A stretch of 64,000 nucleotides of DNA. It comes from Candidatus Binatia bacterium (GTDB lineage Bacteria; Desulfobacterota; Binatia; DP-6). The DNA lies in contig DATGIZ010000042.1 in assembly GCA_035295465.1 (NCBI GenBank), positions 91,614-155,613 on the forward strand, given 5' to 3'. Every line of letters starts with the position of its first letter. Position 1 is the first letter of the stretch. The position numbers were made by a program, and so were the translations under genes. Shown here in pieces: positions 23,018 to 64,000 of the stretch. The notes under the pieces were generated by a model. That model was not told the DNA's origin, searched no databases, and was given only the letters and a program-made list of their open reading frames with translations.

Positions 23018-25327
23018 GTGGCCGCGCGCGGCTTCGTGCTCACGCCGACCTACCGCGTCGCGGCAGGCCGGCCCGAGGTGCATCTCTACGGCGTCCTCGA
23101 GGGCGGCGAGCCGGTGCTGGTCGTCGACGATCGGCTCGCGCCGTACTTCTTCGTACGCGCCGCCGACGCAGCCCACCTGGCGGACGCCCGGGTGGTCGCG
23201 ACGGACCTGCGCACCTTCGCCGGCGAGCCGGTGCTGCGAGTCGAGGTGGCCCTGCCGCGCGACGTCCCGCCGCTGCGCGCGCGGCTCGCCGCCGCCGGCG
23301 TGCCCACCTACGAAGCCGATCTGCGCTTCGCGTACCGGTGGCTGATCGACCGCGGCATCTCGGGCGCGTTCGCGGTGGAGGGGCGCTTCGAGCGCCGGCC
23401 CGGGGTCGGCCGCGTCTACCACAACCCCGCCCTCGACCCGGCGGTCTTCACGCCGAACCTGCGCGTGCTCGCGCTCGACATCGAGACCAGCCTCGACACG
23501 GGTGCCCTCTACTCGCTCGCGGTCGCGGGCGCCGGTGGCGAGCGCGTCTTCGTCGTCGGCCGAGCCCCGGTCGCCGGCGCCGAGGTGGTGCCCGACGAGC
23601 GCACCCTGATCGAGCGCTTCCTCGCCCACGTACGCGCCGCCGATCCGGACGTCCTCACCGGATGGAACGTCTGCGACTTCGACCTGGCGGTACTGCTCCG
23701 CTGCGCGCGGCGGGCGGGCCTGCGGCTGGCACTCGGGCGCGGGGACGACGAGCTCGAGCTCCAGCGCGACCCGGGATTCACGCGCGAGGCGCGGGCGGTC
23801 GTGGCGGGGCGGGTCGTGCTCGACGGGCTCGCGCTGCTGCGCTCGTCCTTCTACCGCCTCGAGGACTACACGCTGGAGACCGCCGCGCGGACCCTCGTCG
23901 GACGCGGCAAGCTCCTTGGCCCCGGCCACCGCGGCGCGGCGATCGAGGCGGCGTACCGGGACGATCCTGCGGCGCTCGCGGCCTACAACCTCGAGGACGC
24001 CCGGCTCGTGCTCGCCATCCTCGCGCGCACCGGCCTCGTCGAGCTGACGGTGCGGCGGAGCCTGCTCACGGGGATGCAGCTCGACCGGGTGAGCGCGCAG
24101 ATCGCGTCGGTCGACTCGCTCTACCTGCGCGCGCTGCGCGCCCGCGGCCGGGTGGCGCCGTCGGTGCAGAACGGGGCCGACGCGGCGGGCGCAATCGCCG
24201 GGGGGCTCGTGCTCGACTCGCGCCCGGGGCTCTACCGCAACATCCTCGTCTTCGACTTCAAGAGCCTCTACCCGAGCCTGATCCGTACCTTCAACATCGA
24301 TCCCCTCGTGTTCGTGCCCGCGCCGCCGTGGCCTGCCGCGCACGTGCGCACGCCGGGCGGCGCCGTCTTCCGCACCGACGAGGAGGGCATCCTGCCCGCG
24401 CTGGTCGCGCGCCTGTGGGACGAGCGCGCGCGTGCCCGCGCGGCGGGCGACACGGTGGGCGCGCAGGCGATCAAGATTCTCATGAACTCGCTCTTCGGCG
24501 TGCTCGGCTCGCCGGCCTCGCGGCTGTTCGCGCCCGCCGTGGCGAACGCGATCACCACCGCGGGGCAGCACGTGATCCGCCTCGCCGCCGCGGCGGCCGC
24601 CGCTCACGGCTGTCGCGTCATCTACGGCGACACGGACTCGCTGTTCGTCGACCCGGGCGAGGCCGACCCGGCGCGGGCGGCGGCGCGCGGGCACGAGCTC
24701 TGCGACGCGATCGGCGGTGCGGTGGGCGCGGCCCTCGAGGCGGAGTTCGGCTGCACGAGCCGGCTCGAGCTCGAGTTCGAGAAGGTGTACGCGCGCTTCT
24801 TCATGCCCGAGGTGCGCGGCGGCACGGCGGGGAGCAAGAAGCGGTACGCCGGCCTGGTGGTCGAGGACGGCGGCGAGCGCGTCGAGATCGTGGGGCTCGA
24901 GGCGGTGCGGCGCGACTGGAGCGCCGTGGCGCGGCGCTTCCAGCGTGCGCTGCTCGACCTCGTGCTCCACGACCGGCCGGTGGCCGACTTCGTGCGTGGC
25001 TTCGTCGCCGGGCTGCGCGCCGGCCGCCACGACGACGCGCTCGTCTACCGCAAGGCGCTGCGCAAGCCGCTCGCGGCGTACACCCGCACCACGCCGCCGC
25101 ACGTCAAGGCGGCGCGCAGGCAGGGCACGGAGGCGGGGCGGCTCGTCTCCTACGTGGTCACGCGCGCGGGGCCGGAGCCGGCGGACGCCACCACGGCGCC
25201 GCCCGACTACGACCACTACGTCGAGCACCAGCTCAAGCCGATCGCCGACGCGGTGCTCCGCTTCCTCGGCGGCCCCGATTTCGACGGGATCATCGGGGCG
25301 CGCCGCCAGCTCTCGCTCTTCAAGTGA
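23018..25327 (+). CDS. polB: DNA polymerase II (family B).
   Basis: The N-terminus [14 protein letters not shown]...[17 protein letters not shown] parallels E. coli Pol II (AQAGFILTRHWRDT...). It has Exo I (LALDIETS), motif A ([10 protein letters not shown]), motif B ([12 protein letters not shown]) and motif C (YGDTDS). Confidence 0.9.
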
Positions 25328-28589: not shown

Positions 28590-30356
28590 ATGCGCAGATT
28601 CCCTGCCGTCCTCGTCGCCGCCTCTACCGGGCTCGCGGCCCTCGTGCTCCTGGGTCGCGCCACCCCCGGGGGCACGGTTACGACCCTCCTCCAGGCGCTC
28701 CCCGACCCCAACACGACCGGAATCGCCGGCGACGAGTTCGGGACGTCGGTCGCCGTCGGCGGCGGGCTCGTCGTCGTCGGCGCCCCGCTCGAGGATTCGG
28801 TCGCCACCCGCTCGGGGGTCGCGCTCGTCTTCGACGTGCGCAGCGGCCAGCAGCTCCAGCGCCTCAAGAAGGCGCTGCCGGTGCGGGATGATCGGATGGG
28901 CGCCGCGGTCGCGGTGATCGGCTCGAGCACGGTCGCCGTCGGCGTGCCGGGCGACAACGGGACGTCGAGCAGCACCACCGTGCACTACGGCGCGGTCCTG
29001 CTGTTCGACGCGACGAGCGGCGCCCTCGTCCGCACCCTCCGGGCGCCGGTGCAGAATCAGAACGCCCACTTCGGCACGGCGCTCGCCGCCGTCGGGCCGT
29101 CGCTGCTGGCGGTGGGCGCCCCCGACGATCAGGTCGGCACCGTGACCGGTGGCGCCGTGTACCTGTTCGACCTCACGAGCAGCGCGGCGCCGCAGGTGCT
29201 CACCGAGCCCAGCCCGGCCGCCAACGACGAGTTCGGCACGGCGCTGGCCGCGGTCGGCAGCAACCTGCTCGTCGGCGCGCCCGGGCCCGTGGGAGGCAAC
29301 AAGGCGGGCGCCGCCTATCTCTTCACCCCGGGCAGCGGGGACCCGCCGGTGCCGTTCGCCAACCCCGATGCGAGCACGGGCTCGCTCTTCGGCGCGGCCG
29401 TGGCCGGCGTCGGCGGCAACGTGCTCGTCGGGGCGCCGCAGGACAGCACGGGCCGCGGCGTCGCGTGGTTGTTCCGGCCCGACGGCACGTCGATCCGGGA
29501 CCTGTGCAGCGGGCTGGCGCACACCACCGACAACTGCGGCGCCGCGGTGGCCGGCCGGGGAGCCGACGCGCTCGTCGGCGCACCCAAGACCACGGTGGCG
29601 CAGAAGAACGGCGCCGGGGTCGTCTACTTCGTGGCCGCCGATGGCAGCGTCGAGACCATCGTCGACCCGGCTCCGGCGGGCAAGAATGATCACTTCGGGC
29701 AGGCGGTGGCGGCCCTCGGCGGCTTCCTCGCGTTGGCGGCGCCCGACCGCGCCGTGGGCCAGCTCGCGGACTCGGGCTACGTCTACGTCTACGGCGCGCC
29801 GCTGCCGCCGGGCACGTGCGCGCAGGACGCCGACTGCCCAGAGGGCGAGACGTGCAGCGCCACGGGCATGTGCGTGACGCCGCCGCCGGGTGGCGGTGGC
29901 GGTGGGGGTGGCGGCGGGGGCGGCGCGGACTGCCGGACCGCGGGGCCGACGGCCTGCGACGACGGCGACCTGTGCACGGTGGACACGTGCGAGGCCGGTA
30001 CCGGCGAGTGTGTCCACGCCGCCCAGGAAGGCATCGGGGCGGTCGACTGCCGAGTCGCGCGGATCGCCGCGCTGCTCGCCCCCAACATCGGCGCCTTCCG
30101 GGGGCCGCTGGTGCTCAAGGTGAGGAAGCTCGTCTCCCAGGCGCAGCTCGAGGTGAGCGCCGTCGAGACCGCACCGTCGAAGCGACTCGCTCGGCGCAAC
30201 CTCAACCGGACCGGGGCCACGCTCACGACCTTCCTGCGCGCGGTCAAGCGCGCGGGCAAGCATGGGCGCATCGACTCGGGGCTCGCGGGCGAGTTCGTGT
30301 CGCTCGCGAGCGACGCGCTCGCGCAGATCCCCGCGGCGCGCCGGAGCCTGCGCTAG
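28590..30356 (+). CDS. Secreted FG-GAP (integrin-alpha-like) repeat protein with C-terminal Myxococcus-type Cys-rich repeats and a Gly12 linker.
   Basis: The signal peptide is MRRFPAVLVAASTGLAALVLLG. FG-GAP-like units recur (FGTSVAVGGG, FGTALAAVG, FGAAVAGVG, FGQAVAALG). Cys-rich modules follow (CAQDADCPEGETCSATGMC and CDDGDLCTVDTCEAGTGECVH). The alternative ATG at 28512 lacks a signal peptide. Confidence 0.7.
   Translation: MRRFPAVLVAASTGLAALVLLGRATPGGTVTTLLQALPDPNTTGIAGDEFGTSVAVGGGLVVVGAPLEDSVATRSGVALVFDVRSGQQLQRLKKALPVRDDRMGAAVAVIGSSTVAVGVPGDNGTSSSTTVHYGAVLLFDATSGALVRTLRAPVQNQNAHFGTALAAVGPSLLAVGAPDDQVGTVTGGAVYLFDLTSSAAPQVLTEPSPAANDEFGTALAAVGSNLLVGAPGPVGGNKAGAAYLFTPGSGDPPVPFANPDASTGSLFGAAVAGVGGNVLVGAPQDSTGRGVAWLFRPDGTSIRDLCSGLAHTTDNCGAAVAGRGADALVGAPKTTVAQKNGAGVVYFVAADGSVETIVDPAPAGKNDHFGQAVAALGGFLALAAPDRAVGQLADSGYVYVYGAPLPPGTCAQDADCPEGETCSATGMCVTPPPGGGGGGGGGGGGADCRTAGPTACDDGDLCTVDTCEAGTGECVHAAQEGIGAVDCRVARIAALLAPNIGAFRGPLVLKVRKLVSQAQLEVSAVETAPSKRLARRNLNRTGATLTTFLRAVKRAGKHGRIDSGLAGEFVSLASDALAQIPAARRSLR
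29889..29924 (+). repeat. (GGN)12 simple-sequence tract encoding a Gly12 linker inside the FG-GAP protein.
   Basis: The sequence reads ggt ggc ggt ggc ggt ggg ggt ggc ggc ggg ggc ggc. Confidence 0.8.
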
Positions 30357-30365
30357 ACACGCCGC

Positions 30366-33300
30366 TCACCGGTAGTCGTGCTCGCCGGGCGGCGCGCCGG
30401 CCGCCTCGAGCCGTCGCAGCCGCTCGGCCCGCACGTGCGTCACGCCGTCGCGGCGCTCGAGGCGACCCGCCACCTCGATGAGCGGGGCCGTGTTGAGGAG
30501 CACGCGCCAGCGCTCGTAGAGCGGCGGGGTGAGGAACGCGTTCGCCGTCCCGGTCTCGTCCTCGAGCGTGAGGAAGCACATGCCCTTCGCCGTCCCCGGC
30601 CGCTGGCGGACGATCACGTGGCCGGCGACGCGGACCTGCCCGCCGTGCGGGACCCGGGCCAAGTCGCGCGTCGCGCACACGCCGGCGGCGGCGAGCCGCG
30701 AGCGCAGGTGCGCCATCACGTGCGGGCCCGTGGTGAGCTGCGTCGCCGCGTAGTCGGCGGCGGTCTCCTCGAGCGGGGTCATCGGCGCGAGCGGCGCCGC
30801 CGCCTCGGGGCGCACGTGGGCGAGCAGCGACGCCGGATCCCGCTCGGCGGCGGCCGCCTGCCAGAGCGCCGCGCGGCGCGCGAGCCCCAGGCCGGCGAAC
30901 GCGCCCGCGTACGCCAGCGCCTCGACCTCGTCGCGGGCGAGCTCGCCCGCCTGCGCCGCCTCGGCGACGCTCGCGAAGGGGCGCCGGGCGACGAGCCGCT
31001 CCGCCGCCTCCCGCCGCAGCCCGCGCACGTAGCGCAGGCCGAGGCGGACCGCGAGCCCGCTCTCGCCCGCCTCGAGCGTGCACTTCCACCGCGAGCGGCC
31101 GGCGTCGATCGGCCGGAAGACCACGCCGTGGCGCTCGGCGTCCTTCACCAGCGTCGCGGGGTGGTAGAACCCCATCGGCCAGCAGTTGAGCAGCGCGCAG
31201 ACGAAGGCCGCCGGATGGTGCGCCTTCAGGTACGCCGAGGCATAGGCGATCAGCGCGAAGCTCGCCGCGTGCGACTCGGGGAAGCCGTAGAGCGCGAACG
31301 ACGTGATGCTGCGCACGATGTCGTCCTGCACGGCGCCGGTGATGCCGCGCGCGGCCATACCGGCGCGCAGCCGCGCCTCGATCGCCGCCATGCGCTCGAC
31401 CGAGCGCTTGAAGCCCATCGCGCGGCGCAGCTCCTCGGCCTCGCCGCCGCTGAAGCCGGCGACCGCCATCGCGATCCGCAGGAGCTGCTCCTGGAAGAGC
31501 GGGACGCCGAGCGTGCGGGCGAGGATCGGCTCGAGCGCGGGGTGCGCGTAGGTGACCGGCGCGAGCCCGGCGCGGCGCCGGAGGTAGGGATGGACCATCT
31601 GCCCCACGATCGGCCCGGGGCGGATGATCGCCACCTCGACGACGAGATCGTAGAAGCGCGCCGGCTTGAGCCGTGGCAGCGTCGCCATCTGCGCGCGGCT
31701 CTCGACCTGGAAGACGCCGATCGTGTCGGCCTGTTGGAGCATCGCGTAGACCCTGGGGTCGTCCGGGGGGAGATGCGCGAGGTCGAGGTCGACCCCCTCG
31801 TGCGCCCGCACCAGCGGGAGCGCCTCCTCGAGCGCCGCCAGCATGCCGAGGCCGAGGAGGTCGACCTTGATGAGGCCCAAGTCGGCACAGTCGTCCTTGT
31901 CCCACTGGACGACGTGGCGGCCGGGCATCGCGGCGGGCTCGAGCGGGACGACCTCGTCGAGGCGGCCGGCGGCGATCACGAGGCCGCCGGTGTGCTGGCC
32001 CAGGTGTCGCGGCAGCCCTTGGATGCGGCGCACGAGGTCGACCAGCAGCGCGATGCGCGGCGCCGCCGGGTCGACGCCGCCGTGGCGGAGCTGCGCCGCG
32101 AGCTCGTCGTGCGCGTCGTGCCAGCCGTGCGCGCGCAGCAGCCTCGTGAGCCGGTCGACCTGCTCCGCCGCGAGGCCGAGCGCCTTGCCGACCTCGCGCA
32201 CGGCGCTGCGCGTGCGGTAGGTGACGACCGCGGCCGTCATGGCGGCTCCGCGCTCGCCGTAGCGGCGGTAGACGTACTGGATGACGTCTTCGCGGCGCTC
32301 CCCGCTCGGGAGGTCGAGGTCGATGTCCGGCCACTCCCCGCGCTCCTCGGAGAGGAAGCGCTCGAAGAGGAGGTCCATCGAGACCGCGTCGACGGCGGTG
32401 ATGCCGAGCGCGTAGCAGACCGCGCTGTTGGCGGCCGAGCCGCGGCCCTGCACGAGGATGCCGCGCTCTCGGCAGAAGCGGACGATGTCCCACACGATGA
32501 GGAAGTAGCCCGCGAGGCCGAGCCGCTCGATGACGCCGAGCTCGTGCGCGAGCTGGCGGCGGACGCGCGGGCCCGGCGGCCGCCAGCGCTCGCGCGCGCC
32601 CGCCTCCGTGAGGGCGCGCAGCCGGCCGATCGGCGTCTCGCCCGGCGGCAGCGCGGGCTCGGGGAAGCGGTAGCCCAAGTCGGCGAGCGTGAACGCGCAG
32701 CGCTCGGCGATCCGCCGGCTCGCGCGGATCCACGCGGGCCGGTCGCCGAAGAGCGCCGCCATCTCCGCGGGCGCCTTCAAGTGCCGCTCGGCGTTGGCGA
32801 GCAGCCGGCGGCCGGCGGCGTCGAGCGTCGTGCCCAGCCGGATGGCGGTGAGCACGTCGAGGAGCGGGCGCGCGCCGGGCGTGGCGTGGCGGACGTCGTT
32901 GGTGGCGACCACCGGCACGCCGTGGGCCTCGGCCAGGTCGGCGAGCCGGCGCATGGCGCGCTCCTCGGCGCGCTCGCGGTGGCGGTGGACGTCGACGGCG
33001 AGGCGGGCCGGGAAGAGCGCGCGCAGCCGGTCGAGGATCGCCGCCGCGTCGGGGCCGGCGAGCGGGCCGTCCGTGCCGCCGGCGAGGCAGAAGAGGCCGC
33101 CCGCGTGCTCTTCGAGCTGCGCCCAGTCGACCACGCCCGCGCCCTTCGGCCGTCCCATCGCGGCGTCGGTGAGCAGCCGGCAGAGGCGGCGGTAGCCGTG
33201 GCGGTCCTCGACCAGGAGGAGGATGGTGCCGCCGGCCGCGAGCGGGACCTCGGCGCCGACGAGCGCGCGCATGCCCGCGCGGCGCGCCGCCTGGAAGAAG

Positions 33301-33458
33301 CGCGGCGCGCCGTAGACGCCGCCGCGGTCGGCGAGCGCGAGCGCGTCGTAGCCGAGCGCCGCGGCGCGGTCGGCCAGGTCCTCGGGCAGCGAGGCACCGG
33401 TGAGGAAGCTGAAGGCGCTGCGGCAGCGCAGCTCGACGTAGTCAGTCGTAGACCCCAT
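30366..33458 (-). CDS. dnaE2: Error-prone DNA polymerase III alpha-subunit paralog DnaE2 (ImuC).
   Basis: The N-terminal PHP motif (YVELRCRSAFSFLTGAS), the approximately 1030-aa length, and the position downstream of imuA-imuB all fit. Confidence 0.9.
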   Translation of the reverse strand: MGSTTDYVELRCRSAFSFLTGASLPEDLADRAAALGYDALALADRGGVYGAPRFFQAARRAGMRALVGAEVPLAAGGTILLLVEDRHGYRRLCRLLTDAAMGRPKGAGVVDWAQLEEHAGGLFCLAGGTDGPLAGPDAAAILDRLRALFPARLAVDVHRHRERAEERAMRRLADLAEAHGVPVVATNDVRHATPGARPLLDVLTAIRLGTTLDAAGRRLLANAERHLKAPAEMAALFGDRPAWIRASRRIAERCAFTLADLGYRFPEPALPPGETPIGRLRALTEAGARERWRPPGPRVRRQLAHELGVIERLGLAGYFLIVWDIVRFCRERGILVQGRGSAANSAVCYALGITAVDAVSMDLLFERFLSEERGEWPDIDLDLPSGERREDVIQYVYRRYGERGAAMTAAVVTYRTRSAVREVGKALGLAAEQVDRLTRLLRAHGWHDAHDELAAQLRHGGVDPAAPRIALLVDLVRRIQGLPRHLGQHTGGLVIAAGRLDEVVPLEPAAMPGRHVVQWDKDDCADLGLIKVDLLGLGMLAALEEALPLVRAHEGVDLDLAHLPPDDPRVYAMLQQADTIGVFQVESRAQMATLPRLKPARFYDLVVEVAIIRPGPIVGQMVHPYLRRRAGLAPVTYAHPALEPILARTLGVPLFQEQLLRIAMAVAGFSGGEAEELRRAMGFKRSVERMAAIEARLRAGMAARGITGAVQDDIVRSITSFALYGFPESHAASFALIAYASAYLKAHHPAAFVCALLNCWPMGFYHPATLVKDAERHGVVFRPIDAGRSRWKCTLEAGESGLAVRLGLRYVRGLRREAAERLVARRPFASVAEAAQAGELARDEVEALAYAGAFAGLGLARRAALWQAAAAERDPASLLAHVRPEAAAPLAPMTPLEETAADYAATQLTTGPHVMAHLRSRLAAAGVCATRDLARVPHGGQVRVAGHVIVRQRPGTAKGMCFLTLEDETGTANAFLTPPLYERWRVLLNTAPLIEVAGRLERRDGVTHVRAERLRRLEAAGAPPGEHDYR

Positions 33459-34926
33459 CGACGAACCAGCGCGCCGAGTCGCATTCCCGGTAGCAGCGGT
33501 AGATGCCGCCGTCGGTGAGCTCCAGGTCCCAGTAGTCGCGCGCGAGCGGCGCCGCGCTCCACCACTGTGCGGCGATCCGCCATGGCCCCGCGGCGCCCAC
33601 GACCCGCCCGCCGAGCCCGTCGCCGCGCACGAAGGCGGGCGCGTCGCGCTCGGCGAACACCTCGATCGCGCGCGGCGGGCGCAGCGCGCGCACCACGAGG
33701 CGGCAGCAGGTCGCTGCGGCGGCGGGCGACCCCGGCGCGTCCGCCGGGGCGGGCGCGAAGGGCACGACGGCCGCCGCGCCGGGACGGTGCGTGTCGACCG
33801 GGGCGGGCGCGCCGACGCGGTCCGCGCCGCAGAGCGCGGAGAGCCGGGCGAGCGTGGTGGCGAGCCGCTCCGGCGCGGGGCCCGGAGGAACGAAGAGCCC
33901 GAGCTGGACGGGCCGCACCGTGGCGGGCACCACGACGAGCCGCACGTGCTCGACCGCCGCCCGCGGCGGCTGCGCCTCGATCGCGACGCGGAGACAGGCG
34001 AGGAGCGTCTTCCCGTCGCGCGTCGAGGCGGCGAGCGCGATCCCGCGCGCGTCGCGGCTGCGGTCGCCCAAGCCGAGCACGAGATCGACGCGCGCGCAGC
34101 CGGCGCCGGTGAGCGCGAGCCGGGCGACGGCCCGCTCGATCAGCCCGCGCAGCACGAAGAGCAGCGGCTCGAGCGCGTCGATCGGGTGCTCGAGCGTCGT
34201 CGTCTCCTCGACCGTGCCGTCCGCCGGCCGGGGAGCGAGCGGGCGCTCGTCCTCGCCGCGGGCGGCGGCGACGAGCGCGGCGCCGGCGCGGCCGAGCCGG
34301 GTGGCGACCTCGGCGCCCGGGAGGCGCGCGAGGTCGCCGAGACGCGCGACGCCCCAGCGCGCGAGCGTGGCGGTGACGTCGGCGGGCGGCGCGAGGCAGG
34401 CGAGCGGGAGCGGCGCCAGGAAGCCGCGCTCCGTCCCCGCCGGGACGACCTGTGCGCCGTCGCCGTGGAGGGCCGCCAAGCGGGCGACGGTCATGCTCGC
34501 GCCCACGCCCGCGCGCGCGGCGAGCCCGACGCGTGCCGCGCGGGCGACCAGCGCGGTGGCGAGCCCGGCTTCGCCGGCGACGAGATGGGCGCCGCCCGCG
34601 GCGTCGAGGAAGACGGCGCCGTCGGCCGCCACCTCGATCCGCTGCGCGAGCGAGGCCGCCACGTCGGCGAGCGCGAGCGCGGCCGAGCGCTCGCCGGCGA
34701 GGTCGCGCGGGCGGACGGCCACGTCGGCGGCCGCGGCGCGCGCCTGCGTGGCGGTCAGGCCGGGACGGATGCGGCGGGCCCGGGCCGCGGCCGAGACGGC
34801 GACGACCCGGGCGTGCGGCCCGCGCCCGTCGGTGAGGGCCAGCGGCCGGTCGGCGAGGTCGGGATCCGCGCGGCAGGCGGCGGCGACGGCGAGATCGGGA
34901 ACCAGGACGCAGGCGATGCGCGGCAT
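33442..34926 (-). CDS. imuB: ImuB, a Y-family polymerase-like mutasome subunit.
   Basis: It has a UmuC-like N-terminus (MPRIACVLVPDLAVAAACRADPDLADRPLALTD...). It overlaps the dnaE2 start by 17 nt and sits 12 nt after imuA. Confidence 0.85.
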   Translation of the reverse strand: MPRIACVLVPDLAVAAACRADPDLADRPLALTDGRGPHARVVAVSAAARARRIRPGLTATQARAAAADVAVRPRDLAGERSAALALADVAASLAQRIEVAADGAVFLDAAGGAHLVAGEAGLATALVARAARVGLAARAGVGASMTVARLAALHGDGAQVVPAGTERGFLAPLPLACLAPPADVTATLARWGVARLGDLARLPGAEVATRLGRAGAALVAAARGEDERPLAPRPADGTVEETTTLEHPIDALEPLLFVLRGLIERAVARLALTGAGCARVDLVLGLGDRSRDARGIALAASTRDGKTLLACLRVAIEAQPPRAAVEHVRLVVVPATVRPVQLGLFVPPGPAPERLATTLARLSALCGADRVGAPAPVDTHRPGAAAVVPFAPAPADAPGSPAAAATCCRLVVRALRPPRAIEVFAERDAPAFVRGDGLGGRVVGAAGPWRIAAQWWSAAPLARDYWDLELTDGGIYRCYRECDSARWFVDGVYD

Positions 34927-34938
34927 CGGACGCGCTCC

Positions 34939-35607
34939 TCACGCACAGGCCTGCCTCACGACGAACACCTGTCCCGACGGCCCGACCCGGCTCAGCGCAA
35001 CCGTGATCCGCGCCTCGATGCCGTCGAGCAACGCGAGCCGCCCCGGGCCGCCGCTCCAGCGCACCCGCCGCGCCGTCGTCTCGAGGGCGAGCGCCGCCCC
35101 CGATCCCGCCACCCGCTCGGGAGCGACGACGAGCAGCGTGCTGCGTGTCGCGGCCGCCGCCCGCGCGAGCCGCAACGCGCGCTCCCGCGGCACGCGCGGC
35201 GTGTCGAGGTCGAGCACGACCAGCCCGAAGCCGCCGGCGCCGAGCAGCACCTCGGCGGCCCGCAACGCGTCGAGCGGGGCAGGGGGCCGGACCCAGAGCG
35301 TGCGGTCGAGCCGCACGCCCGCGGCGGCGAGGGCCTCGGGGTCGAGCGCGTCGGCCGGGTCGACCCAGGCGATCGTCTCGCCCGCCCGCGTGGCGCTCGC
35401 CGCCACGTGCGCGGCGAGCCCCGTGCGCCCCGTGCTTCGCGGCCCCACCAGCTCGGTCATCCGCCCGCGCGGCAGCCCGCCGCCGAGCGCCCGGTCGAGG
35501 GCCGCGAGCCCGACCGGCAGGCGGCGGACCGCCCCGGCGGGCTCCGTCCCGAGGCGCAGGCTCCCCGGCCTGCCGAGCCGATCGAGGAGAACGGCGGCGG
35601 CGGACAT
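34939..35607 (-). CDS. imuA: ImuA, a RecA/SulA-fold mutasome component.
   Basis: It has the pattern LPVGLAALDRALGGGLPRGRMTELVGPRSTGRTGLAAHVAA...IAWVDPADALDPEALAAAGV and sits first in the imuA-imuB-dnaE2 order. Confidence 0.75.
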   Translation of the reverse strand: MSAAAVLLDRLGRPGSLRLGTEPAGAVRRLPVGLAALDRALGGGLPRGRMTELVGPRSTGRTGLAAHVAASATRAGETIAWVDPADALDPEALAAAGVRLDRTLWVRPPAPLDALRAAEVLLGAGGFGLVVLDLDTPRVPRERALRLARAAAATRSTLLVVAPERVAGSGAALALETTARRVRWSGGPGRLALLDGIEARITVALSRVGPSGQVFVVRQACA

Positions 35608-35640
35608 GGGGCCATGTATTTCGCCTTTTATTCGCCCCCG
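35608..35640 (-). promoter_or_regulatory. AT-rich 32-nt spacer with the tandem direct repeat GGCGAATAAAA / GGCGAAATACA between the enoyl-CoA hydratase stop and the imuA start; candidate operator/promoter (possible SOS box).
   Basis: The minus strand reads TGA CGGGGGCGAATAAAAGGCGAAATACATGGCCCC ATG. It is the only AT-rich patch in the region. TTGACG straddles the upstream stop codon. Confidence 0.35.
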
Positions 35641-36483
35641 TCAAGACCGGCGCCACCAGGGATAGAAGGGAGGCATGTCCGTGCTCGGCCGCATGGTGAA
35701 GCGGGCGGGCCGCTTCTCGAGAAAGGCGGCGACGCCCTCGCGCGCGTCGGCCGAGCGGCCCATCCAGTAGATGGCCTTCGAGTCGACGCGGTGCGCCTCC
35801 AGCGGGTGGTCGGCGCCGAGCATCCGCCAGAGGAGCTGGCGTGCGAGAGCCACCGAGACCGCCGAGGTGTTCTCCGCGATCTCGCGCGCGATCGCGCGCG
35901 CCGCGGCGAGCAGCGCCTCGGGGGCGACGACGCGGCTGACGAGCCCGGCGGCCAGCGCCTCCTCGGCCGGGAAGATGCGCCCCGTGTAGACCCATTCCGC
36001 GGCCCGCCCGATCCCCACCACCCGCGGCAAGAACCAGCTCGAGCATGCCTCGGGGACGATCCCCCGGCGGGTGAACACGAAGCCCATGCGCGCCGCCGTC
36101 GAGGCGATCCGCACGTCCATCGGCAGCGTCATGGTGACGCCGACGCCGACCGCCGCGCCGTTGATCGCCGCGATCACCGGCTTGGTCGACTCGAAGATGC
36201 GCAGGGCCACCTGCCCGCCGCCGTCGCGGTGCTCGTCGATCGTCTCGTGCGCGGAGGCGTCGAAGGTGCGCGCGCCGGCGCCGAGATCGGCTCCCGCGCA
36301 GAAGGCCCGGCCGGCGCCGGTGACGATCACCGCACGCACGGCGTCGTCGGCGTCGGCGCGGTCGAAGGCGTCGATCAGCTCGCGCATCATGCGCGCGGTG
36401 AAGGCGTTGAGCCGCTCGGGCCGGTCGAGCGTCAACGTGAGAACGCCGTCGGCCGTCTCGTAGCGGATCTGCTCGTAGGTCAT
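35641..36483 (-). CDS. Enoyl-CoA hydratase/isomerase (crotonase family).
   Basis: Crotonase motifs are present (VIVTGAGRAFCAGADL, ...KPVIAAINGAAVGVGVTMTLPMDVRIAS). A GGAGGG ribosome-binding site precedes the ATG at 36483. Confidence 0.85.
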   Translation of the reverse strand: MTYEQIRYETADGVLTLTLDRPERLNAFTARMMRELIDAFDRADADDAVRAVIVTGAGRAFCAGADLGAGARTFDASAHETIDEHRDGGGQVALRIFESTKPVIAAINGAAVGVGVTMTLPMDVRIASTAARMGFVFTRRGIVPEACSSWFLPRVVGIGRAAEWVYTGRIFPAEEALAAGLVSRVVAPEALLAAARAIAREIAENTSAVSVALARQLLWRMLGADHPLEAHRVDSKAIYWMGRSADAREGVAAFLEKRPARFTMRPSTDMPPFYPWWRRS

Positions 36484-36668
36484 GCGCCCTCCGTGACCTT
36501 CGCGAGCTCGTAGTCGAGCTCCTCGGTCGTGCCCCCGTCGTCGAGGGTGACCGTGTAGCTCCACGCGCCATTGGAGGCCGTCAGCCGCTCGCCGACCACG
36601 CGCCCGCGCCGCCCGTCGCGCAGCACGACTCGGTCGCCGATCTCGATGCGTCCCGCCGGTGGTTGCAT
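36480..36668 (-). CDS. Small protein (62 aa), DUF1918-like, translationally coupled (ATGA) to the enoyl-CoA hydratase.
   Basis: The sequence is MQPPAGRIEIGDRVVLRDGRRGRVVGERLTASNGAWSYTVTLDDGGTTEELDYELAKV. Its stop overlaps the hydratase ATG. Confidence 0.5.
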   Translation of the reverse strand: MQPPAGRIEIGDRVVLRDGRRGRVVGERLTASNGAWSYTVTLDDGGTTEELDYELAKVTEGA

Positions 36669-36677
36669 GCGCGGAGC

Positions 36678-37079
36678 CTACCTGCCCACGGCCTCGACGT
36701 GAAACGAGCGGATCGCGGGGTCGTTCGGCAGCGCGACCACGAACGTCGCCGTGCGGCCGGGCGGCACCGCCTGTGGCGTCGGCAGGGCCTCGGCGCGCGC
36801 CACCACCGCGCCGTGGGCGTCGAGCCCCTCCACCCACACCGCGAGGTCGCGGCTCGCGCGCGAGCCGGTGTTGTGCACGGTCCCCTCGACGTAGAGCTCC
36901 CGGCCGTCCGCGCTCGGCGTCTGCTCGAGGTCGGCCCCGATCGTGAAGTCCGCGGTGGTCGACGGCGGGAGCGGCTGCTCGCCGAGCGGCGGGGCGGGAG
37001 CGGGGGGCGGCGCCGGCGGGGGCCTCGAGACCGGCGCGCAGCCCGCGAGGAGCAGCGCCGCCGCGACGAGACCCCTCAG
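36678..37079 (-). CDS. Lipoprotein with a C-terminal beta-sandwich-like domain, possibly FxLYD-like; the start codon is uncertain (possible CTG).
   Basis: The lipobox is LVAAALLLAGC and a Pro-rich linker follows. The domain reads ...DGRELYVEGTVHNTGSRASRDLAVWVEGLDAHGAVVARAE...ATFVVALPND. There is no in-frame ATG/GTG/TTG near the signal peptide. A GGAGG lies 7 nt before an in-frame CTG that overlaps the MaoC stop. Confidence 0.45.
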   Translation of the reverse strand: MRGLVAAALLLAGCAPVSRPPPAPPPAPAPPLGEQPLPPSTTADFTIGADLEQTPSADGRELYVEGTVHNTGSRASRDLAVWVEGLDAHGAVVARAEALPTPQAVPPGRTATFVVALPNDPAIRSFHVEAVGR

Positions 37080-37909
37080 GTCGCCACCTCCGCCGCCGCG
37101 GCGGAGAGCACGACCTCGCCCCGCTCGGTGACCGCCGTGAGCACGATGCGCCCCGGCGCCACCTGCCACATGTTCGTGGTGATCGTCTCCCCGGGGAAGA
37201 CCACGCCCGAGAAGCGCACCTCGAACGCCTTGAGCCGCGCCGGGTCGTTCCCGCACCATGCGCGCAGCACCGCGCGCCCGGCGTGGCCGAAGGTGCACAG
37301 CCCGTGGAGGATCGGGCGGTCGAAGCCGCCCATGCGGGCGAAGTCGGGGTCGGCGTGCAGCGGGTTCATGTCGCCCGAGAGGCGATAGAGCAGCGCCTGT
37401 TGCGGCAGCGTCTTCATCGCGACGACCTGGTCGGGGGCGCGATCGGGCGGGACGTTGCGCGCGCCGCTCGGGCCGCGGTCGCCGCCGAAGCCGCCCTCGC
37501 CGCGGACGAAGATGCTCGATGTGTTGCGGAAGAGCAGCGCGCCCCGCGCGTCGACCGTATCGGTCTCGACCACCACGACCGCTCCCTTGCCCTTGTCGTA
37601 GACCGCCCTGATCGTCGGTGTGGTGGTCACGGTGCCGCTCGTCGGGATGGTCGCGTGCAGCTCGATGCGCTGCTCCCCGTGGAGCACCATCGCGGGGTTC
37701 ACCTGCATCGCGCCGCCGAGGTTCATCATCGCCGGGAAGGACGGGATCACCGCGAAGGTCGGCAGCACGCGCAGGTCGCGCTCGTAGACGAACCGGAGGT
37801 CCTCGGGACCGGCGCCGACGCCGAGCGCGTAGAGCATCACGTCGCGCTCCGTGTAGGCGTGGGCCACCGGTGACAGCTTCTTGCCAACGTAGGACAGATC
37901 GATCGGCAT
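37076..37909 (-). CDS. MaoC-like (R)-specific enoyl-CoA hydratase with two hotdog folds.
   Basis: It has the hydratase-2 motif (...LYRLSGDMNPLHADPDFARMGGFDRPILHGLCTFG...) and an N-terminal degenerate hotdog. A GGGAGG ribosome-binding site precedes the ATG at 37909. Confidence 0.8.
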   Translation of the reverse strand: MPIDLSYVGKKLSPVAHAYTERDVMLYALGVGAGPEDLRFVYERDLRVLPTFAVIPSFPAMMNLGGAMQVNPAMVLHGEQRIELHATIPTSGTVTTTPTIRAVYDKGKGAVVVVETDTVDARGALLFRNTSSIFVRGEGGFGGDRGPSGARNVPPDRAPDQVVAMKTLPQQALLYRLSGDMNPLHADPDFARMGGFDRPILHGLCTFGHAGRAVLRAWCGNDPARLKAFEVRFSGVVFPGETITTNMWQVAPGRIVLTAVTERGEVVLSAAAAEVAT

Positions 37910-37939
37910 GGCGCCTCCCGGGGCGCGAGAGTTCCGCGA

Positions 37940-37956
37940 TTGACGGGTCAGGTCAA
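37940..37956. promoter_or_regulatory. Inverted/direct repeat TTGACGGGTCAGGTCAA in the 67-nt divergent region between the MaoC-hydratase and SDR genes; candidate operator/promoter.
   Basis: TTGAC...GTCAA is an inverted repeat, and GGTCAGGTCA is a direct repeat. TTGACG is also a good -35 for the + strand gene. Confidence 0.25.
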
Positions 37957-37976
37957 GGCCGCCTACAACCGCCGCC

Positions 37977-38720
37977 GTGGCGGGCGAGCTCGCGGGGCGC
38001 TGCGCCGTGGTGACGGGCGCGTCGAGCGGCATCGGGGCGGCGGCTGCGCGGGCGCTCGCACGCGCCGGGGCCGCGCTGGTGCTCGGCGCGCGGCGCGCCG
38101 AGCGGCTCGACGCGCTCGCCGCCGAGCTGCGTGCGGCGGGCGCCGCGGTGGCGACGCGGCGGACCGACGTGCGGCGCGAGGAGGACGTGGTCGGGCTCGT
38201 CGCGCTCGCGCGCGAGCGCTTCGGCGGCGTCGACGTGCTCGTCAACAACGCGGGGCTCGGCCGGGCCGCGCCGGTGAGCAGCGCGCCGACGGAGCCCTGG
38301 CGCGAGATGCTCGAGGTGAACGTGCTCGGGCTGCTGATCGCCACCCGCGAGGCGATCCGCGACATGGAGCGTCGCGGCGTGGCCGGCCACGTGGTGAACG
38401 TCGCCTCGATGGCGTCCCACCGCGTACCCGGCCCGGACGCGGCGGTCTACGCCGGGACCAAGTTCGCGGTGCGGGCGATCACCGAGGGGCTGCGCCAGGA
38501 GCTGCGCGCGCGCCGGAGCCCGATCCGCGTCTCGGCCGTGTCGCCGGGGCACGTCGAGACGGAGTTCGCCGAGGGGTTCTCGGGGTCGAGCGAGGTGTAC
38601 CGCCGCCTGAAGGCGCTCGCGGCCGACGACGTCGCCGCCGCGATCGTCTGGATCGTGACCCGCCCGGCCCACGTCGAGGTCCACGACGTGCTCGTGCGCC
38701 CGACGGCGCAGCGGAACTGA
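37977..38720 (+). CDS. Short-chain dehydrogenase/reductase (SDR).
   Basis: It has the cofactor-binding motif TGASSGIGAAAARALA, the NNAG motif and a YAGTK catalytic motif. The start is GTG. Confidence 0.85.
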   Translation: MAGELAGRCAVVTGASSGIGAAAARALARAGAALVLGARRAERLDALAAELRAAGAAVATRRTDVRREEDVVGLVALARERFGGVDVLVNNAGLGRAAPVSSAPTEPWREMLEVNVLGLLIATREAIRDMERRGVAGHVVNVASMASHRVPGPDAAVYAGTKFAVRAITEGLRQELRARRSPIRVSAVSPGHVETEFAEGFSGSSEVYRRLKALAADDVAAAIVWIVTRPAHVEVHDVLVRPTAQRN

Positions 38721-38815
38721 CCCGGCTCGCCGCGCGCCGCACGCAGCGCCCTCGGTCGGTGAATACGGCGGCCCGTATTGACGTCGACGGTGAGGTGCGA
38801 CACGTTGGGGGAGCG

Positions 38816-40264
38816 ATGGGCGCATCCGGCCGTGTCGTGATGGTGTCGCATCGCGCACCGGTGGAGGTCGAGCCCGACGGGGGCGGCGGGCGCATGAAGC
38901 GCACCGTTGGCGGCCTCGCCACGGCGCTCACCGACGCGCTGCGCGCGCCGGGTGGCACGTGGGTGGCGTGGGCCGGCGAGGCCGCCCCCGACGTGCTCGT
39001 GCCGGACGCCACCGGGCTCTCGTTCCCGATCCGCGCCGTGCCGCTCGACCGGCACGAGATCGACAACTACTACGCGGGGTTCGCCAATCAGGTCCTCTGG
39101 CCGCTCTGTCACATCTTCCCCGACCGCTGCCACTTCAGGCCCGCCTTCTGGGAGTCCTATCAGCACGCCAACGAGCGCTTCGCCGGCGCGGTCCGCGCGG
39201 AGGTCCGCCGCGGCGACCTCGTGTGGGTGAACGACTTCCACCTCTGCCTCGTCCCGGGCCTGCTGCGGGCGAGCGCGGTGCCCGCGCGCCTGGGCATCTT
39301 CTGGCACATCCCCTTCCCGCCGCCGGCGGTCTTCGGCATCTGCCGCTGGCGGGCCGAGCTGCTCGCCGGCCTGCTCGGCGCCGACGTCATCGGGCTGCAG
39401 ACCGCCGCCGACGCCCGCAACTTCGCCGCGTGCGTCCGGCAGTTCCTCGAGCTGCCGATCCTCGACGACCCGCTGCGGGTGCGGCTGCCGGGCCGCGACG
39501 TGCACCTGCTCGTCCTGCCGGTGGGCGTCGACGCCGCCCGCTTCCGCGCCCAGGCGGCCGACCCCGCGATCCGCGAGCAGGCCGCACGCGTGCGCGCCAA
39601 CCTGGGGACGGACCTCGTCTGCCTCGGCGTCGATCGCCTCGACTACACCAAGGGCATCATCGAGCGGCTGCTCGGCTTCGAGGCGTTCCTCGAGCGGCAT
39701 CCTTCGTGGCGAGGCCGGGTGGGCCTCCTCCAGATCACCGTACCCTCCCGCTTCCGCGTGCCCGACTACCGCGACATGAAGCGCACCATCGACGAGACCG
39801 TCGGCCGCATCGTCGGTCGCTTCACGCACGAGGGGCGTGCACCGCTCGCCTACCTCTACACGGCGTTCGACCACGAGGAGCTGGCGGCCTACTATGTCGC
39901 CGCCGACGTCGCGCTGGTCACTCCGCTGCGCGACGGCATGAACCTGGTCGCGAAGGAGTACGTCGCCTGTCACGCCGGCGGGGACGGTGTGCTCGTCCTT
40001 TCGGAGTTCGCGGGCGCCGCCGACGAGCTGCGCGAGGCCCTGCTCGTCAACCCGTGGGACGCGCAGACGATCCGCCGCCAGATCGACCTGGCCGTGACCA
40101 TGACCGACGGCGAGCGGCGCCGGCGCATGGGCGCGCTCGCGGCGAGGGTGTGCGCCCGCGACGTGCGCTGGTGGGCGGCCGCTTTTCTCGCGGCGCTCGC
40201 CGACGGCGCGGATGCTTCTCCGGAGGCGCGGCACGACGACCTCGAGCTGCCGGGCCTCGCCTGA
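38816..40264 (+). CDS. otsA: Trehalose-6-phosphate synthase (GT20, OtsA).
   Basis: The N-terminus RVVMVSHRAPV...GGLATAL...WVAWAGE parallels E. coli OtsA (RLVVVSNRIAP...GGLAVGIL...WFGWSGE). GT20 blocks are present (…YYAGFANQVLWPLCH…WVNDFHL…). Confidence 0.85.
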   Translation: MGASGRVVMVSHRAPVEVEPDGGGGRMKRTVGGLATALTDALRAPGGTWVAWAGEAAPDVLVPDATGLSFPIRAVPLDRHEIDNYYAGFANQVLWPLCHIFPDRCHFRPAFWESYQHANERFAGAVRAEVRRGDLVWVNDFHLCLVPGLLRASAVPARLGIFWHIPFPPPAVFGICRWRAELLAGLLGADVIGLQTAADARNFAACVRQFLELPILDDPLRVRLPGRDVHLLVLPVGVDAARFRAQAADPAIREQAARVRANLGTDLVCLGVDRLDYTKGIIERLLGFEAFLERHPSWRGRVGLLQITVPSRFRVPDYRDMKRTIDETVGRIVGRFTHEGRAPLAYLYTAFDHEELAAYYVAADVALVTPLRDGMNLVAKEYVACHAGGDGVLVLSEFAGAADELREALLVNPWDAQTIRRQIDLAVTMTDGERRRRMGALAARVCARDVRWWAAAFLAALADGADASPEARHDDLELPGLA

Positions 40265-63006: not shown

Positions 63007-63656
63007 CGGGGCGCGTCGAGAAGGGCGGGCAGCACGGCTTCGAGGTCGAGCACCGACGCCACCGTCGCGTCGGCCTCCGCCACGGCGTCGGTGCCCACGT
63101 AGACCGTGCGCATGCCGAGCTGGCGGGCGGCGCGCAGGTTGACCGCCGTGTCCTCGACGAGCACGCAGTCGCGCCCGCGCGCGTGCAGGTCGGCGAGCAC
63201 CGTCTGATAGGCGTGCACGTAGGGCTTGGGCAGGTAGTGCAGGCGCTCCAGCGCATAGAGCCGGAAGAAGAGCGTGCGCACGCCGAGGCGCTCGAGCACG
63301 GTGCGGGCGTGAGCGAGCGACCCGTTGGTGACCGCCACCTTGACGAGCGGGAGGCGGGCGAGCAGCGCAGCGAGCGCCGGGTCGGGTGCGAGCAGGTCGG
63401 CCAGATCGATCGCGTGCACGAAGGCGAGGTAGTCGTCGGGGTCGACGCCGGGCCGGCTCATGAGCCCATGGAGCGTGGTGCCGTATTCCCGCCACATGCG
63501 CCGGCGGGTCCCGTCGACCTCCGCCGCGGGGATGCCCGCGCGCTCGACGAGGTAGCGGTTGATGAGGGCGTCGACGCGCTCGACGACCCCGCACGTGGGC
63601 GCATAGAGCGTGTTGTCGACGTCGAGGAGGAGGAACGGACGCGCCACGCCCGTCAC
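63003..63656 (-). CDS. HAD-family hydrolase (pyrimidine-5'-nucleotidase-like).
   Basis: It has HAD motif I (LLLDVDNTLY) and a C-terminal VEDTAVNL…G motif. Its GTG start forms a GTGA overlap with the lexA stop. Confidence 0.7.
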   Translation of the reverse strand: MTGVARPFLLLDVDNTLYAPTCGVVERVDALINRYLVERAGIPAAEVDGTRRRMWREYGTTLHGLMSRPGVDPDDYLAFVHAIDLADLLAPDPALAALLARLPLVKVAVTNGSLAHARTVLERLGVRTLFFRLYALERLHYLPKPYVHAYQTVLADLHARGRDCVLVEDTAVNLRAARQLGMRTVYVGTDAVAEADATVASVLDLEAVLPALLDAPR

Positions 63657-64000
63657 CGGTAGCGCCGCAGCAGCCCTACCACGACGCCGCGCACGACGAC
63701 GTCCTCGGCCGCGGCCACGATCGGCGCGAGGCGCTCGTTGGCGGGCACGAGGCGCACGCGCCCGCCGCGCTCGCGGTAGAGGCGCTTCACGGTGGCCTCG
63801 CCGCCCACGAGCGCGACGACCGTCGCGCCGTCGGGCGCGTCGGCCCGCGCCTCCACCACCACCAGATCGCCGTCGAGGATGCCGTCGCCGATCATCGAGT
63901 CCCCGCGCACGCGCAGCGCGAAGGTCTCGCCGCGGCCGAGGAGCTCCTCGGGGAGCGCCACCGTCTCGCGCACCTCGACGGGCTCGACGGGCGCGCCGGC
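63653..64000 (-). CDS. lexA: LexA repressor, C-terminal S24 peptidase domain; the N-terminal DNA-binding domain lies beyond the window end.
   Basis: The frame is open to base 64000. It reads …AGAPVEPVEVRETVALPEELLGRGETFALRVRGDSMIGDGILDGDLVVVEAR…KRL… The Ala-Gly cleavage site, the Ser nucleophile (GDSM) and the catalytic Lys region are all visible. Confidence 0.75.
   Translation of the reverse strand, partial: AGAPVEPVEVRETVALPEELLGRGETFALRVRGDSMIGDGILDGDLVVVEARADAPDGATVVALVGGEATVKRLYRERGGRVRLVPANERLAPIVAAAEDVVVRGVVVGLLRRYR

Follow-up and report, generated by a model that had tools for sequence, protein, structure and literature searches.

The imuA-imuB-dnaE2 (imuABC) mutagenesis cassette is regulated by LexA in Caulobacter crescentus and many Proteobacteria (PMC4951493, PMC9578287). 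The direct repeat GTTC-N7-GTTC is a known LexA motif (PMC4951493, PMC12700426, PMC9578287), and GTTCttgttatGTTC of Caulobacter is an example of this alphaproteobacterial box (PMC12700426). Here we describe a mutasome cassette in 64,000 nt of DNA from Candidatus Binatia bacterium (contig DATGIZ010000042.1, positions 91,614 to 155,613; this whole stretch is called the window), where it follows directly behind a co-directional run of four genes for a MaoC-type hydratase, a lipoprotein, a protein of 62 aa and an enoyl-CoA hydratase (ECH). It shares with the described cassettes the three genes, their order and their tight coupling, as well as a single predicted operator directly upstream of imuA that is also found at lexA. 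In contrast to them, it belongs to an uncultured class, its ImuA scores 74.7 bits where the curated cut-off is 150, the lysine of the ImuA P-loop is replaced by arginine, and its promoter appears to span only about 37 nt, looks leaderless and takes in the stop codon of the gene in front. An earlier note on this DNA had raised the possibility that the cassette was wired to the metabolic genes before it. Our comparison of relatives points, with good probability, to a mutasome operon of the ordinary SOS type, with a dedicated promoter and a predicted operator that it has retained.

A short conserved module upstream of imuA

The stop codon of the ECH gene and the ATG of imuA are separated by 33 nt (35640..35608), which read tcTTGACGggGGCGAATAAAAGGCGAAATACATGGCCCC-ATG on the coding strand and form an A+T-rich island within a very G+C-rich genome (about 74% G+C in the window). 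The predicted −35 hexamer, TTGACG, overlaps the upstream gene, whose TGA stop (35643..35641) sits within it, and from the T that opens TTGAC to the A of the imuA ATG the distance is 37 nt. The spacer that follows holds the direct repeat GGCGAAtaaaagGCGAAA, which extends from directly past the −35 element into the −10 region; on the other strand it reads TTTCGCCTTTTATTCG (35619..35634), that is, TTTC-N7-ATTC.

Relatives were collected by scanning metagenomes with the C-terminal half of ImuA, which is specific to this protein; with three genome loci (L003-L005) added, this gave about 80 Binatia-type imuA loci with 52 distinct upstream sequences. A first scan of genome contigs with the full ImuA alignment had mostly returned recA of other phyla (77 of 80 loci), and one of the two peptide patterns also matches RecA. 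In all 52 distinct upstream sequences, the 35-40 nt directly preceding the start codon follow the consensus cTTGAC(a/g)-N3-6-GGCGAAnnAAAnGCGAAa-N7-10-ATG/GTG, and the DNA beyond this module is unrelated between loci. GCGAA-N6-GCGAA is present in all 52 upstream regions and in five lexA promoters. TTGAC precedes the imuA start by 34-39 nt in 50 of the 52 relatives; for 44 the distance is 35-37 nt.

In five imuA loci (L127, L128, L129, L133, L163) the repeat is inverted, with TTGAC and the start codon unmoved, which argues for a protein-binding operator rather than a sigma-factor element. The idea that the repeat belongs to the promoter itself, for example as the recognition elements of an alternative sigma factor, has a next to negligible probability in our judgement. 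It would account for the overlap of the second half-site with the expected −10 position and for the conserved A that the repeat provides at −10/−11; sigma elements, however, are orientation-dependent, and the repeat occurs in both orientations against a fixed TTGAC and start codon, inverted at those five imuA loci and at all five lexA loci.

The specificity of the site was assessed with a 20-nt matrix made from 44 relatives, the window site being left out. On both strands of the window (about 128,000 positions) the predicted operator upstream of imuA, with 33.7 bits, was the sole site of at least 12 bits, and the next best position reached 9.1 bits. At all Binatia-type loci examined, every match of at least 16 bits stands before imuA, lexA or dnaE2. 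A search of the window with the simple pattern KTTC-N7-RTTC gave two matches where 1.4 were expected, no better than chance, so that only the longer matrix is specific. Like the alphaproteobacterial GTTC-N7-GTTC box, the Binatia element is a direct repeat and not a palindrome, with a period of 11 bp, a TTC core, a T-rich spacer and a position over the core promoter. It differs in its half-site, TTCGC(C), where TTC is invariant and the leading G is not conserved: the imuA site of the window is TTTC-N7-ATTC and that of lexA TTTC…GTTC.

A similar box, A(C/T)ACGAATAAAA(A/G)GCGAA(A/G)(A/C), was also seen in nine more distant loci of unassigned host (L143, L148, L153, L155, L156, L158-L161; imuA about 40% identical), where it precedes the estimated start of imuA by roughly 60-80 nt. 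The motif class may thus be wider than Binatia.

The module also bears on how imuA is translated. A Shine-Dalgarno core at positions −17 to −5 was found in only one of the 52 imuA sequences, as against 18 of 49 imuB sequences; in the window, imuA has no Shine-Dalgarno sequence and imuB has GAGGAG 8 nt upstream of its start. Upstream of imuA, 44 of 52 sequences have C at −1, and 45 of 52 have A at −10. Since TTGAC mostly keeps its distance of 35-37 nt and the Shine-Dalgarno core is nearly absent, the geometry is probably that of a leaderless transcript that begins with the ATG or GTG itself, the promoter-proximal half-site covering the −10 region. Leaderless transcripts are common in Actinobacteria and Deinococcus. 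Binatia imuA resembles them in that its start codon is as far from −35 as +1 usually is, in the missing Shine-Dalgarno sequence and in an ATG or GTG that follows a pyrimidine. The likeness is one read from sequence, however, and the −10 hexamer of imuA is not recognisable as TANNNT.

Sites at lexA and at a detached dnaE2

The window ends within lexA, and the part inside it already displays the Ala-Gly cleavage site, the GDSM serine and the VKRL lysine. The full gene of the same genome was reached in locus L083, through its downstream neighbour. There the predicted lexA operator, GAGCGAACGGAAGGCGAAAA, occupies L083 5378..5397, and the upstream region includes TTTTCGCCTTCCGTTCG, which is the direct repeat of the imuA spacer on the other strand. 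The matrix found one site, of 19-31 bits, at each of the five lexA loci (L083, L165-L168), with the repeat inverted relative to imuA in all five. At four of them (L083, L166, L167, L168) the site exactly fills the 17-nt spacer between a −35 element TTGCNN and a −10 element of TAGGNT type.

At the fifth locus, L165 (positions 2001..2060), the called start of LexA (216 aa) lies upstream of the operator, which thus comes to lie within the gene as annotated. As in L083, translation probably begins further down, here by about 19 codons. In L166 (210..2000) and L168 (195..2000), lexA is divergent from a gene for an ATP-dependent DNA ligase at a distance of 50-100 nt, and the lexA operator may control the ligase gene too.

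One of the genome loci, L004 (8188..12129), carries a split cassette in which dnaE2 lies about 4 kb from imuAB. This dnaE2 has its own TTGAC and its own repeat (26.9 bits), which ends 1 nt before the ATG; a detached dnaE2 with a predicted operator of its own is a further likeness to the described imuABC systems. Because the site is found in the lexA core promoter, before the mutasome operon and before the detached dnaE2, the repeat looks like a LexA box.

Origin of the junction and control of the operon

Among the loci compared, ECH adjoins imuA with a 33-nt gap in the window and in just two relatives, L085 and L173, whose ImuA is 83-84% identical. In five loci with ImuA about 70% identical (L093, L095, L103, L104, L132), the block formed by a divergent short-chain dehydrogenase (SDR) gene and the MaoC-lipoprotein-62aa-ECH run is located 1.1-2.1 kb upstream of imuA. 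The interval is taken up by opposite-strand (minus-strand) genes of varying content, with an acetyltransferase-like gene and genes for small membrane proteins in one lineage, whereas another has a gene for a membrane protein of 637 aa. At most other Binatia-type loci, the upstream neighbour of imuA is unrelated and mostly divergent. The earlier note had itself named an unrelated gene in place of the hydratase in related genomes as the outcome that would make the junction unremarkable, and this is largely what the synteny of most relatives looks like. The unusual coupling of mutagenic repair to metabolic genes that it had considered is therefore not supported, as the adjacency is confined to the closest relatives and gives way elsewhere to intervening opposite-strand genes or unrelated neighbours.

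Co-directional genes unrelated to the lipid run also stand close to imuA, at 33-57 nt in L105 and L114. In L114 (919..955) such a gene ends 33 nt before imuA, and its stop is again the TGA inside the −35 TTGAC. Since unrelated genes adjoin imuA in the same way, the tight packing appears to be a property of the compact promoter and not of the lipid genes. The hydratase itself points the same way: its ancestral tail, …FYPWW(P/E)ER(K/T)F(K/R/T)-stop, corresponds to …FYPWWRRS-stop in the window, a shortened and rewritten C-terminus, and to …SPRPFKAPA-stop in L085, and both of these proteins end at the TGA within TTGAC. We read the adjacency as a derived compaction in one small clade, which the very short promoter would have made possible. 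A position 33 nt behind a metabolic operon need not mean wiring, as some 37 nt can apparently hold a full promoter with its operator and even the stop codon of the neighbour.

A dedicated promoter in the spacer had been one of the options of the earlier note, and this option is strongly supported by the TTGAC and direct-repeat module, which about 50 relatives carry before imuA although their genes further upstream are unrelated, together with the repeat in five lexA promoters. The likely course of events would be as follows. Opposite-strand genes amounting to 1-2 kb would have been lost in this one lineage, which would have pressed an ordinary mutasome operon against the 3′ end of the MaoC-lipoprotein-62aa-ECH run, so tightly that the native ECH stop was lost and ECH came to end at the TGA in the imuA −35 element. 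We infer that LexA, whose Ala-Gly cleavage site and Ser/Lys dyad are intact in this genome, is the protein that binds the repeat, and that it would block RNA polymerase there. Upon DNA damage, RecA-stimulated self-cleavage of LexA would free the imuA promoter, and transcription would start at the imuA ATG or within a few bases of it, producing a leaderless mRNA without a Shine-Dalgarno sequence. imuB would then be translated from its own GAGGAG, and dnaE2 by coupling through the 17-nt overlap. Read-through from ECH would be incidental, and probably damped by bound LexA and by the missing ribosome-binding site of imuA.

Several points weigh against this account. A generic sigma-70 scan of 34900..38200 called no promoter at the junction, where the −10 region has no recognisable TANNNT; the imuA promoter is called here by comparison and not by consensus, and the generic scan neither supports nor contradicts it. 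A terminator scan of the same range found none, either between ECH and imuA or elsewhere, so that some co-transcription of ECH and imuA is physically likely. The adjacency has been kept across lineages whose ImuA differs by 16%, and is thus at least tolerated. At recA of four Binatia genomes (L169-L172) there is no site of at least 8 bits within 1.5 kb, and of the three genes by which a LexA motif is usually recognised in silico (lexA, recA and imuA), lexA and imuA appear to carry it. Finally, the evidence consists of sequence, and the organism is an uncultured one represented by a metagenome-assembled genome.

Because no terminator was found, read-through from ECH into imuA is possible, with no sign of being a selected feature. 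A stronger version would be dual control, in which the operon has its own SOS promoter and also receives physiologically meaningful read-through from the MaoC-ECH promoter, such that growth on the relevant acyl-CoA substrates raises the basal level of the mutasome. We consider this unlikely. The co-directional genes, the 33-nt gap and the lack of a terminator-like hairpin in the scanned range would all permit it, and the junction has been retained in L085 and L173 despite the divergence of ImuA; yet it is limited to these closest relatives, the five lineages with a nearby ECH run have 1-2 kb of varied opposite-strand genes before imuA, and most lineages have unrelated neighbours. Moreover, imuA has no Shine-Dalgarno sequence for internal initiation, an occupied operator would stand in the path of the polymerase, and the unrelated genes of L105 and L114 adjoin imuA equally. 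Somewhat less probable still is that the loss of intervening genes gave this Binatia lineage a second, LexA-independent input to the mutasome, with transcription of MaoC-ECH running on through the 33-nt gap. Growth on the relevant lipids would then raise the error-prone polymerase without DNA damage, and a selected function of such an effect is unlikely. A selected link of the mutasome to lipid catabolism is not supported by the loci compared.

The recA genes without the motif share an element of their own. All four loci, L169-L172, have CTGGAGA(C/G)TC…N…TA(G/C)A(G/T)T at about 40-90 nt before recA (around locus positions 1410-1470), and behind it stands GGGGGAGGG, a strong ribosome-binding site. 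Binatia recA may have a different mode of control. Among delta-type lineages, several are said to keep recA outside LexA control. In L102 and L111, recA is located 4 kb upstream of imuA. A different damage regulator, either of the XRE type such as Myxococcus DdiA or an activator, might also be proposed to act on the repeat and to control lexA and the mutasome genes. We regard this as very unlikely: recA without the motif in four of four genomes, with the promoter-like CTGGAGAsTC…TAsAGT in its stead, would suit such a regulator, as would the LexA-independent control of dnaE2 documented in Myxococcus xanthus (PMC12288472), but in L083 and L166-L168, the four loci whose lexA promoters were read, the site lies within the core promoter of lexA, as is classic for autoregulation. 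A site placed between −35 and the start codon, in addition, suits repression and not activation, and an 11-bp direct repeat with a TTC core matches the known class of LexA boxes. The assignment of the repeat to LexA rather than to another damage regulator is thus well supported, if short of proof.

With LexA as the candidate repressor, the regulon seems to comprise lexA and the mutasome, without recA or polB. The gene for DNA polymerase II, polB, was considered as an SOS gene and rejected, since the window scan gave no matrix match of at least 5 bits near its start. The absence of the repeat from recA (L169-L172) also sets the putative LexA box of Binatia apart from GTTC-N7-GTTC. A literature search found no paper that mentions Binatia together with LexA, and the direct repeat TTCGC-N6-TTCGC, phased like the alphaproteobacterial box, may serve as a candidate LexA-binding motif for this unstudied class. 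The inferred box and its apparent absence from recA are mildly new; together with a regulon that apparently includes the mutasome and lexA and leaves out recA and polB, and with the signs of leaderless SOS genes, they are by-products of modest value for the study of SOS evolution.

Genes and junctions of the window

The features are collected in Table 1. Gene calls and family searches bore out the minus-strand order given in the earlier note, from the MaoC gene to dnaE2, and family models likewise confirmed its observation that polB and the C-terminal part of lexA lie within the same window. Its overlaps and gaps were also as it had described them, apart from the ECH-imuA gap, which is 33 nt and not 32. 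The MaoC and lipoprotein genes overlap by CTGA, a 9-nt gap separates the lipoprotein gene from that of the 62-aa protein, and the latter overlaps ECH by ATGA. Within the cassette, a 12-nt gap lies between imuA and imuB, and the start of dnaE2 overlaps the end of imuB by 17 nt. An Rfam search of 30000..39000 returned no RNA family.

Table 1. Positions of the genes and predicted control elements (window coordinates unless a locus is named)
Feature	Position	Strand	Remarks
dnaE2 (imuC)	30366..33458	-	1030 aa, error-prone Pol III alpha paralogue; Pfam PHP, DNA_pol3_alpha, finger, HHH_6 and OB domains
imuB	33442..34926	-	494 aa, Y-family polymerase-like; Pfam IMS 56.6 bits, and IMS_C
imuA	34939..35607	-	222 aa, RecA-fold accessory protein, ATG start; Pfam RecA 75 bits, residues 10-141
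Predicted LexA-type operator GGGCGAATAAAAGGCGAAAT	35618..35637	-	GCGAA (35635..35631), N6, GCGAA (35624..35620); 11-bp period
Predicted −35 hexamer TTGACG of the imuA promoter	35639..35644	-	position of TTGAC conserved in relatives
ECH (enoyl-CoA hydratase)	35641..36483	-	280 aa; Pfam ECH_1; NCBIfam NF006109 459 bits vs 320
62-aa protein, conserved, function unassigned	36480..36668	-	gene call; stop overlaps ECH start (ATGA)
FxLYD-domain lipoprotein, lipobox LLAGC	about 36678..37079	-	NCBIfam NF038353 39 bits vs 23
MaoC/MFE-2-type (R)-specific enoyl-CoA hydratase	37076..37909	-	277 aa, first of the four-gene run; Pfam MFE-2_hydrat-2_N and MaoC_dehydratas
SDR, divergent	37977..38720	+	adh_short; upstream boundary of the MaoC-ECH run
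polB (DNA polymerase II)	23018..25327	+	NCBIfam NF004421 755 bits vs 570
lexA, C-terminal (S24 peptidase) part	63653..64000	-	TIGR00498 188 bits vs 111; remainder and promoter past the window end
Full lexA of the same genome	L083 5411..6004		197 aa; reached through the downstream neighbour

The assignment of the three cassette genes is based on family models and motifs. DnaE2 reaches 1281 bits with the NCBIfam model NF004225, 'error-prone DNA polymerase' (cut-off 939), and the replicative DnaE models of NCBIfam score below their own cut-offs. ImuB scores at most 74 bits with the DinB models of NCBIfam, whose cut-offs are 256-399. Read by eye, it has VLVPDL in place of the DinB DMD motif and AADG in place of SIDE, as would be the case for a Y-family fold without the catalytic carboxylates. 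The low score of ImuA given above was obtained with the NCBIfam model ImuA_translesion; its RecA-like N-terminal domain and its position 5′ of imuB fit the assignment, and its N-terminus, MSAAA.LLDRLGRPG, is kept among relatives. An ImuA annotated in a metagenome-assembled genome of a Candidatus Binatia bacterium has the identical sequence. The ImuA P-loop reads GPRSTGRTG (residues about 52-63; window 35430..35456), with arginine instead of the Walker A lysine, and arginine is nearly invariant at this position across the Binatia family. ATP hydrolysis may therefore be absent from Binatia ImuA. The ImuA of Myxococcus is a reported ATPase.

Variants of the cassette were also seen. The match to dnaE2 is broken at residue 728 in L088 (6663..7087), L089 (5827..6251) and L098 (4197..4636) and resumes some 420-440 nt further on, which indicates that about 140 aa are inserted there, possibly as a mini-intein or as an additional domain. 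In L113, L119, L130 and L136, imuB and dnaE2 are separated by 0.5-0.8 kb.

In the upstream run, the region between the divergent SDR and MaoC genes measures 67 nt, and the same divergent SDR neighbour is present in L093 and L095. The 62-aa protein gave no match in the family search; homologues with 66-80% identity occupy the equivalent position in L085, L093, L095 and L132. Upstream of the lipobox of the FxLYD lipoprotein, ATG, GTG and TTG are all absent. The CTG-TGA overlap of its start with the MaoC stop (window 37076..37082) is conserved in L085 (about 3245) and L095 (about 1272), and the CTG that overlaps this stop (CTGA), the sole plausible start in the three diverged loci, is the probable one. 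The pattern points to translational coupling and to CTG as a conserved, non-canonical start.

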